A stretch of 64,000 nt of DNA from Candidatus Omnitrophota bacterium (GCA_018400015.1 JAGYNB010000001.1:70815-134814); one strand, 5' to 3'. Shown: positions 46,304-47,759, numbered from the stretch's first letter. A program made the numbers and translations. Notes: generated from the sequence alone by a model not told the origin.

Positions 46304-46783
46304 TTGAATCTAGAAAATCTGAATAAGTCAATACTGGTATGGGGTGCTTTATCTGAGGAGGCCACTGCTTACTTAAAAAGTAAACAAAAAAGCGTTATCG
46401 TCAGTGAAAACAGGCCTTTTCTAATAGGTATAAAGCACAATAAGGATAAGTTAATCCAGGCAAAGATTGATTTTGTGTATTGTACGGACAACATGCTCGG
46501 ATTTTTGTTTTATAAAAAAAGAATAGAAGAGGTAGTGCTTTGTTATAAGAAAAAAGATGATATGGGAATTGTCGCTATCACGGGAACTCTTTTTGCAGTA
46601 ACGCTGGCAAGATTGCACAACATAAAAGTAAGAGTTTTTTCTGAAGGAGATCTGGATTATTCTAGGCTGGATAAGGATAGCATTACTTTAGACGGCAAAA
46701 CTTTGGCAATTGATGAGGATAAGGAATTTTTTGAACCAGTAAAAGATGAATTCATAGAAAAGGATATGTATGAATACAGATGA
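46304..46783 (+). CDS. Small eIF-2B-family-like protein (C-terminal half of the MtnA fold only)
   Basis: VLCYKKKDDMGIVAITGTLFAVTLARLHNIKVRVF aligns by eye with the MtnA GADR...NKIGTYSLAVLAK..IPFYV region. The N-terminal substrate-binding half is absent. I have low confidence in this call. Confidence 0.3.
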   Translation: MNLENLNKSILVWGALSEEATAYLKSKQKSVIVSENRPFLIGIKHNKDKLIQAKIDFVYCTDNMLGFLFYKKRIEEVVLCYKKKDDMGIVAITGTLFAVTLARLHNIKVRVFSEGDLDYSRLDKDSITLDGKTLAIDEDKEFFEPVKDEFIEKDMYEYR

Positions 46784-47759
46784 TTTAAAAAAACAGATAA
46801 TCTATTGGGCAAGGCTTCTTAATCAAAGGGGTTTGGTTACGGCAAGAAGCGGGAATATTTCCTGCAGGGCGGACGATAAAATTCTTATGACCAGCCATGA
46901 TTCTTATCTTGGGCAGTTAGCCGAAGATGAAATCGTTCTGGTGGGCTCTGATGGAGACGTATTAGAAGGCGCAAAACAGCCTACCAGTGAAAAACCGCTG
47001 CATCTGGGGATATTAGGGCATATCGACCAGGCTCAAGTTGTGATCCATTCGCACAGTCCTTTTACAACCGCATTCTTCCATCATTTTAAGCAACTGGATA
47101 TCTTTTCTTTTGAGGCAAAGTTTTATTTAGGAGATGTAAAAGTCGTTGCCCAAACTGGCCCTACGGTAACAGATGTAGATCCGGTAATAGAAGAATTGAT
47201 GGATAATAATATTGTTGTTTTGGGCGATCACGGTGTGGTGGCGATCGGCCGAGATTTTAAAAGTGCGTTTAGCCTGATTGAACTATTGGAGGAACAATGT
47301 AAGGTTAACCTTATCTTATCAGGTAAGCAGGAACAATCTTTTAATATTGAAGAGGCCAAAGAAGAGATACTGCCGGAACCGCAAACTTATGAGTTGCTTT
47401 CCGAAGGCCATATTAAAAAACTAACTGAAGTCATAAACAGCGACACAGAAGCCCAGGAATTGGGTAAAAAATATGATCTAACCTGTTCATTGTGCGTTAA
47501 GGATAAAGATAGCGAAAAGTCAGCCTGTTTTTATTATCAGCAGGGAAGGATTACGCACACCGACAATAATCAAGTTGCAGAATTTTCGATTACAGGCTCA
47601 AGAGACGTATTAAAAAGGATCTTTAACTGCAAGATCGATCCTTTTGTCGCTATTACTCAAGGTAAAGTAAAAACCAAAGGCGATATTAATAAAATCAGCA
47701 AGTGGTATCCTGCGCTGGTGAGAACGTTCAAGCTTTGGGATCAGGCAAAAGTAGCCTAA
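46770..47759 (+). CDS. Class II aldolase/adducin-family protein (MtnB- or 5-deoxyribulose-1-P aldolase-like) with a C-terminal SCP2-like domain
   Basis: It has an aldolase_II N-domain (VTARSGNIS...VIHSHSPF...VVLGDHGVVAIG). The C-terminal ~110 aa (FSITGSRDVLKRIFNCKIDPFVAITQGKVKTKGDINKISKWYPALV) resemble SCP2 sterol-carrier domains. Confidence 0.55.
   Translation: MNTDDLKKQIIYWARLLNQRGLVTARSGNISCRADDKILMTSHDSYLGQLAEDEIVLVGSDGDVLEGAKQPTSEKPLHLGILGHIDQAQVVIHSHSPFTTAFFHHFKQLDIFSFEAKFYLGDVKVVAQTGPTVTDVDPVIEELMDNNIVVLGDHGVVAIGRDFKSAFSLIELLEEQCKVNLILSGKQEQSFNIEEAKEEILPEPQTYELLSEGHIKKLTEVINSDTEAQELGKKYDLTCSLCVKDKDSEKSACFYYQQGRITHTDNNQVAEFSITGSRDVLKRIFNCKIDPFVAITQGKVKTKGDINKISKWYPALVRTFKLWDQAKVA

Follow-up and report, generated by a model that had tools for sequence, protein, structure and literature searches.

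A class II aldolase fused to an SCP2 domain co-occurs with a half-size MtnA-like protein in a lipid-related operon of Omnitrophota

Results

Two overlapping genes encode a half-size MtnA-like protein and an aldolase-SCP2 fusion

A stretch of 64,000 nucleotides (nt) of DNA from a Candidatus Omnitrophota bacterium (GCA_018400015.1 JAGYNB010000001.1:70815-134814), hereafter referred to as the window, carries two overlapping genes at positions 46304-47759. The first encodes a 159-amino-acid (aa) relative of the methylthioribose-1-phosphate isomerase MtnA and of the translation initiation factor eIF2B, whereas the product of the second is a 329-aa class II aldolase with an additional C-terminal domain of the SCP2 family. 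A preliminary description, made from the sequence alone, had placed both open reading frames (ORFs) at these positions on the + strand, and they were found there. The 159-aa ORF (46304-46783) opens with a TTG codon that has no obvious Shine-Dalgarno sequence before it; the N-terminus of the protein family is conserved at this start. The 329-aa ORF (46770-47759) begins with ATG, has an AGGA ribosome-binding site 5 nt upstream, and its start overlaps the stop of the 159-aa ORF by 14 nt. The features of these two genes, and of the isomerase gene to which they are compared, are as follows.

43896..44804, + strand: divergent 302-aa MtnA-like sugar-1-phosphate isomerase, with the Cys of T-I-C-N and the Asp of G-A-D-R kept (Pfam, NCBIfam, alignments to 1T9K and 2YRF)
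46304..46783, + strand: 159-aa half-size MtnA/eIF2B paralog with the C-terminal Rossmann-like domain only, presumed non-catalytic partner (Pfam, family alignment, AlphaFold, Foldseek)
46770..47327, + strand: class II (metal-dependent) aldolase domain, aa 1-186 (Pfam, alignment, AlphaFold, Foldseek)
47328..47375, + strand: disordered, sequence-variable linker, aa 187-202 (predicted local distance difference test score, pLDDT, <50 at residues 187-202; variable alignment columns)
47376..47759, + strand: SCP2 domain (aa ~203-329), predicted to bind a hydrophobic ligand, and stop codon (Pfam, AlphaFold, tail profile searches)

The fusion has 233 detected homologs. Amongst the best 120 of these, nearly all matched over 97-100% of the query at 48-72% identity, and every named source was Candidatus Omnitrophota. 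The AlphaFold2 model of the fusion was confident and had two domains (pLDDT 89.2, predicted template-modelling score, pTM, 0.82). Given the many homologs and the confident AlphaFold models of both proteins, the occurrence of the fusion and of the half-size protein is well beyond chance. The preliminary description had suggested structure prediction, Foldseek comparison and a search for further fusions; the first two gave confident models that matched DrdA and FucA for the fusion and MtnA and eIF2B for the 159-aa protein, and the last uncovered an Omnitrophota-wide family with conserved MtnA-like and half-size genes upstream.

The catalytic domain resembles DrdA and FucA rather than MtnB

Pfam places Aldolase_II (PF00596) at aa 9-180 of the 329-aa protein (E 1.2e-33, 117 bits, cutoff 22.2). 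Residues E74, H93, H95 and H154 were invariant in a 30-sequence alignment of the fusion family. FucA has three His that bind the metal and a Glu that is catalytic or a ligand (E73, H92, H94 and H155), to which the four invariant residues correspond; they also align with the SSE..H and HTHSP/NHG motifs of DrdA. The closest entries in the PDB, both by fold and by sequence, were 6BTG and 6BTD (DrdA), with L-fuculose-1-phosphate aldolases second. Foldseek comparison of the fusion with 6BTG, 6BTD and 2OPI gave E-values of ~1e-14 to 1e-15, target template-modelling (TM) scores of 0.81-0.83 and root-mean-square deviations of 2.1-2.7. DrdA is a 5-deoxyribulose-1-phosphate aldolase that disposes of 5-deoxyribose, a by-product that radical S-adenosylmethionine (SAM) enzymes leave behind (PMC6079011).

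Amongst NCBIfam models, the MtnB model TIGR03328 scored 62.3 bits against a cutoff of 137.05 and so did not reach its threshold, whilst FucA-type models scored ~109 bits, above MtnB, AraD and OtnC, all of these scores being below the equivalog cutoffs. From its neighbours in fold and sequence, together with an MtnB score far below cutoff, the catalytic domain is assigned to the DrdA/FucA type of class II aldolase and not to the MtnB type. The preliminary description had called the protein an MtnB-type aldolase or dehydratase; the class II aldolase fold stands, but the kinship with MtnB does not, since DrdA and FucA are closest by fold, sequence and model score. An MtnB dehydratase assignment was ruled out by the same model scores and structural neighbours. 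Aldol cleavage to dihydroxyacetone phosphate (DHAP) and an aldehyde, rather than dehydratase, epimerase or decarboxylase chemistry, is supported indirectly, because FucA-type models outscore the others and a predicted hydrolytic aldehyde dehydrogenase (ALDH) lies downstream in relatives of the window.

The C-terminal tail is an SCP2 domain

SCP2 (PF02036) was matched at aa 225-311, with 27.5 bits in the full protein and 30.2 bits in the isolated tail (gathering cutoff 21.3). When tails of the family were isolated, 21/21 matched Pfam SCP2, the best with an E-value of 1.3e-8. Only residues 187-202 were disordered in the AlphaFold2 model, and the only variable segment of the 30-sequence alignment was ~aa 190-225; mean column identity was 71% in the tail versus 63% in the whole protein. 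The order of secondary-structure elements in the modelled tail is compatible with the SCP2 alpha/beta fold. A profile of the tail matched the SCP2-like C-terminal domains of alkyl sulfatases in the PDB, and SCP2 itself weakly. In an exhaustive search of 1.84 billion representative proteins, the same profile gave 103 matches in total. The strong matches were almost all 320-340-aa fusions with the tail at the same position, and the weaker ones were stand-alone SCP2 proteins and a canonical MFE-2-type enzyme (E 1.5e-7).

By these comparisons the tail is identified as a genuine SCP2 domain, predicted to bind a hydrophobic ligand. The proposal of an SCP2-like tail in the preliminary description is therefore borne out, both by the Pfam matches and by the reach of the tail profile to MFE-2-type SCP2 proteins. 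That the tail might be an ordinary C-terminal extension of the aldolase was excluded by the SCP2 matches of all 21 tails. The aldehyde side of the FucA active site is covered by a mobile tail at the C-terminus, the very place at which SCP2 is joined to the aldolase here.

The half-size protein is a conserved paralog predicted to lack catalytic activity

The IF-2B profile (PF01008) has 280 positions, of which 125-214 align with aa 21-112 of the 159-aa protein (32.9 bits, cutoff 22.4). The AlphaFold model was confident (pLDDT 93.1, pTM 0.88), and the top 50 Foldseek matches were all MtnA, ribose-1,5-bisphosphate isomerase (R15P isomerase) or eIF2B subunits. The query TM of ~0.7 versus a target TM of ~0.35 means that the protein corresponds to about half of each target. 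The N-terminal helical domain is absent, and with it the two-domain architecture of MtnA and eIF2B. The Pfam positions and the Foldseek matches thus agree with the preliminary description, in which this ORF held only the C-terminal half of the fold.

A profile search returned 77 homologs, nearly all 145-185 aa long and the rest shorter fragments, of which every named one came from Omnitrophota; 13 residues were invariant in the family. A pseudogene or decaying fragment, the outcome that would have run counter to the preliminary description, is ruled out by these size-matched orthologs, the invariant residues and a pLDDT of 93. The family begins at the strand that normally bears the catalytic Cys, where W13-G14 stands instead, and C-Y-K-K (family consensus F-Y-K-E) replaces the G-A-D-R of MtnA. 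The E-x-R-P...G motif is kept (E35, R37, P38, G42). Judged from sequence and model, the 159-aa protein is a conserved, folded MtnA paralog that consists of the C-terminal domain only and is predicted to be catalytically dead.

As also noted in the preliminary description, the half-size gene is a second copy downstream of a full-length isomerase gene. The 302-aa product of the latter has a full IF-2B match (Pfam, E 1.2e-40), and its T-I-C-N and G-A-D-R motifs align with those of 1T9K and 2YRF. Its NCBIfam scores lie below cutoff (PRK05720, 166.9 bits versus 271; a second model, 154 versus 279), which marks it as a divergent member of the family. With its catalytic residues intact, it is predicted to be active.

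The C-terminal domain of MtnA mediates dimerisation, and that of eIF2B mediates subunit pairing. For this reason, and by analogy with the non-catalytic subunits of eIF2B, the 159-aa protein most likely pairs with the 302-aa isomerase. One locus bears on this point: L029 is the sole locus in which the half-size gene is missing although the isomerase is present, and the isomerase encoded there is more canonical (235 bits, compared with 167 in the window). This single case supports a partner role for the half-size protein.

The SCP2 tail and the half-size gene co-occur across Omnitrophota

A scan of species-representative genomes yielded 47 loci, in which genes were mapped by ORF calling and by BLAST against the proteins of the cluster. 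Upstream co-occurrence was counted for SCP2-bearing aldolases whose upstream flank was 2.5 kb or longer. MtnA-like and half-size genes lay directly upstream of 32/36 SCP2-bearing aldolases, versus 0/6 of their SCP2-less relatives. Across the phylum Omnitrophota, the SCP2 tail and the half-size gene are found together as fixed traits of one family. The preliminary description had regarded both as atypical embellishments; they are indeed present, but they are not one-off oddities.

The loci fall into two types. Type A comprises the window, Ca. Gygaella obscura (L004), L005-L013 and L031, with the order (AccA-PadR)-ligase-B12 radical SAM-purine nucleoside phosphorylase (PNP)-MtnA-half-size-aldolase-SCP2-ALDH-MMPL-DUF1329-DUF1302. 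The PNP-isomerase-aldolase trio of the window is also present in L004-L011, L013 and L031. Type B comprises L001-L003, L016 and L018-L039; here a set resembling a type II polyketide synthase (PKS), i.e., ketosynthase, chain-length factor, acyl carrier protein (ACP), two cyclases, a major facilitator superfamily (MFS) transporter and a ketoreductase, often precedes the order B12 radical SAM-Amidohydro_2-Aminotran_4-MtnA-half-size-aldolase-SCP2-ALDH. An LsrF-like thiolase and a zinc-dependent alcohol dehydrogenase (Zn-ADH) are sometimes present in type B, as is the MMPL trio. PNP and Amidohydro_2 are nearly exclusive beside the module (PNP only in 8, Amidohydro_2 only in 16, both in 1, neither in 6). 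Amidohydro_2 was considered as a stand-in for the nucleoside-cleaving step and rejected, as it resembles the LigW/ACMSD/IDCase decarboxylases.

The ALDHs that adjoin the fusion carry the E-L-G-G (general-base Glu) and G-Q-M-C (catalytic Cys) motifs in a family alignment, and are accordingly classed by sequence as hydrolytic, aldehyde-oxidising enzymes. Retention of these hydrolytic motifs suggests that the aldolase works in the cleavage direction, with flux from aldehyde to acid. An acyl-CoA reductase, which an anabolic direction would require, was rejected on the same motifs. In L008 and L026 the MMPL trio has the aldolase on one side and the ALDH on the other, so that the exporter lies within the module. 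A B12 radical SAM gene was found within 10 kb in 21/26 SCP2-bearing loci with enough flanking sequence, and in L012 and L017 the PNP-aldolase-SCP2 combination has no radical SAM gene nearby.

Divergent Aldolase_II-SCP2 fusions (L041:8036-8998 and L042:8521-9483), from metagenome-assembled genomes (MAGs) labelled Elusimicrobia and Clostridia, show 43-45% identity overall and ~33% in the tail. Their neighbours are unrelated (an AddAB-like helicase-nuclease, OsmC, QueH and a HAD hydrolase), and neither a radical SAM gene nor a lipid operon is close by. In an Anaerolineaceae MAG (L051:9392-11188, MBI9045596.1) an independent fusion has its domains the other way round: two SCP2 domains at the N-terminus precede a class II aldolase that is FucA-like, in a protein of 598 aa. 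Genes for a TetR regulator, a Zn-ADH and a nitroreductase adjoin it, and neither PNP nor MtnA is encoded in the vicinity. Because fusions occur without a radical SAM gene or lipid operon (L012, L017, L041, L042), and because the Anaerolineaceae fusion arose independently, SCP2 appears to be tied to the aldolase's own chemistry. A 694-aa protein, P0202, on a 3.4-kb ENA contig joins a truncated Radical_SAM_N2-type radical SAM enzyme to an N-terminally truncated aldolase-SCP2. It was discounted as a Rosetta-stone link, since its broken domain boundaries and the short contig indicate that it is probably a chimeric assembly or a deletion and not a real fusion. The closest SCP2-less aldolases, in Desulfobacterota (L043-L045), have unrelated neighbour genes.

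Several further features of individual loci were observed. In ~12 genomes (L002, L003, L016, L018, L022, L024, L026, L027, L030, L032, L034 and L040; at ~1-5200 in L003) the type II PKS-like set lies directly upstream of the genes from B12 radical SAM to aldolase-SCP2, and comprises two FabF-like ketosynthases, an ACP, a PF04199 cyclase, an SRPBCC polyketide cyclase, an MFS transporter and an SDR ketoreductase. A DeoC-family protein (L001:12836-14712; also L018, L023, L025, L027, L037 and L038) scores 354 bits, against a cutoff of 297, with the model for the LsrF-type 3-hydroxy-5-phosphonooxypentane-2,4-dione thiolase. Such thiolases make DHAP and acetyl-CoA; in these seven loci the gene is paired with that of the Zn-ADH, after the ALDH. 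In L047 (5985-11107) the MtnA-like and half-size genes are separated by ~2.6 kb that contain no B12 radical SAM match, and the aldolase-SCP2 has a ~40-aa insertion, for a total of 369 aa. Finally, in one genome (L046:9231-12504) RlmN and a second radical SAM gene come immediately after a PNP and an SCP2-less aldolase of 191 aa, an arrangement with which disposal of plain 5'-deoxyadenosine by the SCP2-less form would fit.

The fusion lies in a nine-gene operon with lipid-related genes

All genes between 41638 and 52567 of the window run in the + direction, and the gaps that separate them measure -14 to +38 nt. Their order is acyl-CoA ligase, DeoD-like phosphorylase, MtnA-like isomerase, B12 radical SAM, half-size isomerase, aldolase-SCP2, MMPL, LolA-like and DUF1302. 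A promoter-like site and a terminator flank these nine genes, whose junctions are tight or overlapping. Apart from the genes listed above, the features of this region are as follows.

40975..41496, + strand: PadR-family transcriptional regulator, upstream of the operon (Pfam PadR, E 3.8e-15; synteny)
41573..41600, + strand: sigma-70-like promoter match, TTGAAA-16-TATAAT, 11/12, the best in the region, in the 142-nt gap before the ligase gene (consensus match only)
41638..43146, + strand: AMP-binding acyl-CoA ligase, closest to the long-chain fatty-acid CoA ligase subfamily (Pfam AMP-binding, E 2.9e-82; NCBIfam PRK06187, 463.7 bits, cutoff 476)
43149..43895, + strand: DeoD-like purine nucleoside phosphorylase, which would open the shunt (Pfam PNP_UDP_1, E 9.7e-33; NCBIfam deoD, 108 bits)
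44822..46282, + strand: cobalamin-binding (class B) radical SAM enzyme, BchE/HpnJ-like (Pfam Radical_SAM and B12-binding; CxxxCxxC present as C-P-F-G-C-G-M-C)
47798..50149, + strand: MMPL/HAE3-type inner-membrane transporter of the resistance-nodulation-division (RND) class with a sterol-sensing-like domain (Pfam MMPL, E 6.7e-38, Sterol-sensing, 1.3e-9; NCBIfam HAE3, 192 bits)
50169..51059, + strand: LolA-like/DUF1329 periplasmic lipid-carrier-like protein (Pfam LolA_like, E 1.7e-42, DUF1329, 5.3e-12)
51053..52567, + strand: DUF1302 protein, which presumably partners DUF1329 and the RND transporter at the outer membrane (Pfam DUF1302, E 2.8e-24; Pseudomonas cofitness literature)
52588..52625, + strand: strong hairpin terminator, a 15-bp stem followed by a T-run, which closes the operon

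The genes accA and PadR lie upstream in the window, and the order AccA-PadR-ligase is conserved in L004 and L007. The phosphorylase scored 106-108 bits with DeoD-type models, compared with 35.7 bits for HpnG (TIGR03468, cutoff 187). For the radical SAM enzyme the NCBIfam scores were 196.8 bits with BchE and 137.4 bits with HpnJ, both far below cutoff, and it is HpnR-like too. In Pseudomonas, DUF1302 and DUF1329 show cofitness with RND transporters, and export of envelope components or processing of fatty esters has been proposed for them. No isoprenoid, squalene-hopene cyclase (SHC) or hopanoid genes were present in the annotated parts of the window (20-64 kb), which hold housekeeping and envelope genes. 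Membership of a hopanoid (HpnH/HpnG/HpnN) pathway was rejected, given that all scores were far below cutoffs and that SHC and isoprenoid genes were absent from 20-64 kb.

Discussion

The module is of a known kind. A cluster of a phosphorylase (or kinase), an MtnA-type isomerase and an aldolase of class II constitutes 5-deoxyribose salvage, with DHAP and acetaldehyde as products (PMC6079011); another name for it is the DHAP shunt (MtnP or MtnK, MtnA, Ald2; DHAP-shunt papers). As in this shunt (DrdK or phosphorylase, DrdI, DrdA), the operon in the window brings a nucleoside phosphorylase together with a class II aldolase and an isomerase of the MtnA family whose catalytic Cys and Asp are intact; no solved protein is closer to the aldolase than DrdA, and an aldehyde-oxidising enzyme is encoded downstream in most relatives of the window. 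What is new are two lineage-specific, co-occurring additions inside a lipid-related operon. Unlike in the known shunt, the aldolase bears a conserved SCP2 domain, and the isomerase is divergent and accompanied by a half-size paralog that is predicted to be dead. Moreover, the phosphorylase is DeoD-like and not MtnP-like, and the operon also encodes a B12 radical SAM enzyme, a CoA ligase of the long-chain type and an exporter of the RND/LolA-like/DUF1302 kind. No description of a class II aldolase-SCP2 fusion, of the half-size MtnA paralog or of this operon was found in the searchable literature.

The additions have partial counterparts elsewhere. In the SCP2 fusions of MFE-2, SCPx thiolase and the alkyl sulfatases SdsA1/Pisa1, and in the carriers UbiJ/UbiT, where SCP2 holds a hydrophobic substrate, the domain likewise stands at the C-terminus of an enzyme or within a pathway; in contrast to those fusions, the partner here is a sugar-phosphate aldolase. 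Like the regulatory subunits of eIF2B, the 159-aa protein has the Rossmann-like C-terminal domain, has lost the isomerase catalytic residues and has kept a phosphate-binding-type motif. Unlike them, it is half the size, has no N-terminal helical domain, is bacterial, and is encoded beside a predicted active isomerase in a metabolic operon.

The reading that we favour, tentatively and at somewhat less than an even chance, is that the module is a DHAP shunt remodelled for a bulky hydrophobic 5-substituent and wired into the synthesis of envelope lipids. In such a scheme, the DeoD-like phosphorylase would convert a 5'-substituted 5'-deoxynucleoside to a pentose-1-phosphate, the MtnA-like isomerase and its half-size partner would turn this into a pentulose-1-phosphate, and the aldolase-SCP2 would cleave the latter to DHAP and an aldehyde, which in most relatives the ALDH would oxidise to a carboxylic acid. 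The SCP2 tail would capture the hydrophobic aldehyde side of the substrate or product, and the aldehyde, once oxidised and CoA-activated, would be built into an exported envelope lipid. A hydrophobic substrate is favoured because SCP2 is strongly constrained and stands at the C-terminus, where the FucA tail covers the aldehyde side, and because it appears to be tied to the chemistry of the aldolase itself. The remodelling of the isomerase together with the aldolase, the long-chain type of the ligase and the embedding of the exporter in the module all point the same way. A lipid-linked substrate, at which the preliminary description had hinted, would agree with the operon context, i.e., a long-chain acyl-CoA ligase and an MMPL/LolA-like/DUF1302 exporter.

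Several observations weigh against this reading. No enzyme that would join a lipid to adenosine, a nucleoside or a sugar was identified; the only radical SAM enzyme is of the B12-type, BchE/HpnJ-like. To our knowledge, B12-type radical SAM enzymes do not attach lipids to adenosine, and the adenosyl-adding HpnH and MqnE belong to another class. DrdA, which of the characterised aldolases is nearest to this one, has a small substrate. The window operon contains no ALDH gene, nor does L004, and type B clusters have no PNP or other nucleoside-cleaving enzyme within 10 kb. Furthermore, SCP2-less aldolases stand in the same ligase-PNP-aldolase-MMPL arrangement in L048 and L049, so that SCP2 is not obligatory there.

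A more specific form of the scheme is speculative and, in our estimation, improbable. Here the B12 radical SAM enzyme, the sole candidate in the operon, would add the 5'-deoxyadenosyl group of SAM to a hydrophobic acceptor (an alkene or arene derived from a fatty acyl chain or polyketide). The phosphorylase, the MtnA-like/half-size heteromer and the aldolase-SCP2 would then trim the adduct to DHAP and an aldehyde longer by two carbons (ribose C5' and C4'), which would be oxidised, CoA-activated and put into an outer-membrane lipid exported by MMPL/LolA-like/DUF1302. There are precedents for parts of this. In adenosylhopane (HpnH-HpnG) and futalosine (MqnE-MqnB) synthesis, a radical SAM enzyme adds 5'-deoxyadenosyl to a lipid or aromatic acceptor, a PNP-family enzyme removes the base, and the ribose carbons are kept. 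The window differs in that its radical SAM enzyme is B12-binding and BchE/HpnJ-like, with no HpnH or MqnE model among the matches listed, that its PNP is DeoD-like (HpnG, 35.7 bits versus 187), and that the isomerase and aldolase steps have no counterpart in those pathways. Streptomyces cattleya makes fluoroacetate from 5'-fluoro-5'-deoxyadenosine by way of fluorinase, the PNP FlB, an isomerase, a fuculose-type aldolase and an ALDH (PMC6079011; PMC7688953), so that the PNP-isomerase-aldolase-ALDH route can serve biosynthesis and not disposal alone. There a SAM-derived 5'-X-5'-deoxyadenosine passes through PNP, isomerase, class II aldolase and ALDH and ends as X-acetate by way of X-acetaldehyde, as it would here. 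In contrast to that pathway, no homolog of fluorinase or chlorinase is found here, the B12 radical SAM enzyme is the sole candidate to install X, and X would be hydrophobic instead of a halogen.

The strongest rival is ordinary by-product disposal, which we regard as possible but rather unlikely. PNP, isomerase and aldolase (with ALDH) would clear 5'-deoxyadenosine or methylthioadenosine from the co-transcribed B12 radical SAM enzyme to DHAP and acetaldehyde, and SCP2, out of contact with the aldolase's substrate, would be a lipid carrier or membrane tether for the lipid pathway of the operon, fused for co-expression or co-localisation only. The pathway is established (PMC6079011; DHAP-shunt papers), 5'-deoxyadenosine inhibits radical SAM enzymes (PMC6079011), and both the kinship with DrdA and the B12 radical SAM gene near 21/26 SCP2-bearing loci speak for it. 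It leaves unexplained, however, why the isomerase was remodelled simultaneously, with a divergent MtnA and a dead half-copy that track the SCP2 tail. Nor does it sit easily with the loci that have PNP-aldolase-SCP2 and no radical SAM gene nearby (L012, L017) or the fusion alone (L041, L042), with a ligase of the long-chain type instead of an acetyl-CoA synthetase, or with exporter genes inside the module in L008 and L026.

Operation in the anabolic direction is less probable still, and we consider it quite unlikely. The aldolase-SCP2 would condense DHAP with an SCP2-held fatty aldehyde to a long-chain ketose-1-phosphate, the MtnA-like/half-size pair would isomerise it, and the phosphorylase would couple a base or, in type B, the class IV aminotransferase would aminate it, giving an exported polar lipid head group, sphingoid-like or a nucleoside lipid. 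A lipid product would suit SCP2, the acyl-CoA ligase and the exporter alike, type B clusters do contain an Aminotran_4 gene, and class II DHAP aldolases take many aldehydes in synthesis, the direction in which DrdA was assayed (PMC6079011). The ALDHs, however, are predicted to be irreversible and hydrolytic and not CoA-acylating reductases, so the cluster offers no source of fatty aldehyde, and the order radical SAM-PNP-MtnA-half-size-aldolase-ALDH follows the catabolic order of reactions.

An MtnB-type dehydratase in oxygen-independent methionine salvage, in which Aminotran_4 would perform the final transamination and the LsrF-like thiolase and ALDH would handle intermediates, seems very improbable. 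Omnitrophota are mostly anaerobes, for which reason the oxygen-dependent MtnD step would be unavailable; an MtnA-like isomerase does lie upstream, a BCAT-like Aminotran_4 is found in type B clusters, and the LsrF-like thiolase (354 bits, cutoff 297) occurs in seven loci. Yet TIGR03328 reaches 62 bits of the required 137 where FucA-type models reach ~109, the best structural and sequence matches are aldolases, and no enolase-phosphatase or other MtnC/W/X equivalents were seen. The ALDH directly downstream would also imply an aldehyde product, and SCP2 would be left without an explanation. Lastly, artefacts, i.e., a decaying fragment for the 159-aa ORF and a frameshift or readthrough for the SCP2 tail, as the TTG start without an obvious Shine-Dalgarno sequence and the chimeric look of the related P0202 might suggest, can be dismissed almost completely, as conservation already refutes them: 77 half-size orthologs with 13 invariant residues and an N-terminus conserved at the TTG, confident AlphaFold models, and full-length fusions from independent assemblies in nearly all of the best 120 of 233 homologs.

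The DHAP shunt has been regarded as housekeeping clearance of small, soluble SAM by-products, and here its trio has acquired two phylum-conserved extras. Should the substrate be hydrophobic, the module would be a new way to build or extend lipids from SAM ribose, in a major uncultured phylum whose lipids are essentially unknown. If the radical SAM enzyme did supply the adduct, it would amount to a previously unknown two-carbon homologation from SAM ribose in lipid or polyketide biosynthesis, joining the logic of adenosylhopane, futalosine and fluoroacetate. If, on the other hand, the substrate is ordinary 5'-deoxyadenosine, the operon would be a natural case in which the removal of a by-product is physically linked to a radical SAM pathway that modifies lipids. 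Even then, the half-size protein would be a bacterial pseudo-enzyme with the MtnA/eIF2B fold, which may help to explain how the non-catalytic subunits of eIF2B evolved from isomerases.

Other features of the window

Elsewhere in the window, two large ORFs (27667-30747 and 30750-32912; 1026 and 720 aa) have no Pfam match and directly follow genes for a MoxR AAA ATPase and a DUF58 protein, an arrangement that recalls Bat/MoxR-vWA operons. At 33489-38573, a MarR regulator is followed by an outer-membrane efflux protein (OEP) and then directly by an AcrB-type RND pump (4-nt overlap), with no periplasmic adaptor gene between them. Over positions 1-64000 every 2-kb bin has a positive GC skew, with values that run from 0.015 to 0.22 and fall under 0.10 only at 52-56 kb; the GC content is 31-43%. 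Almost all long ORFs are on the + strand, consistent with a single replichore and a strong leading-strand gene bias.

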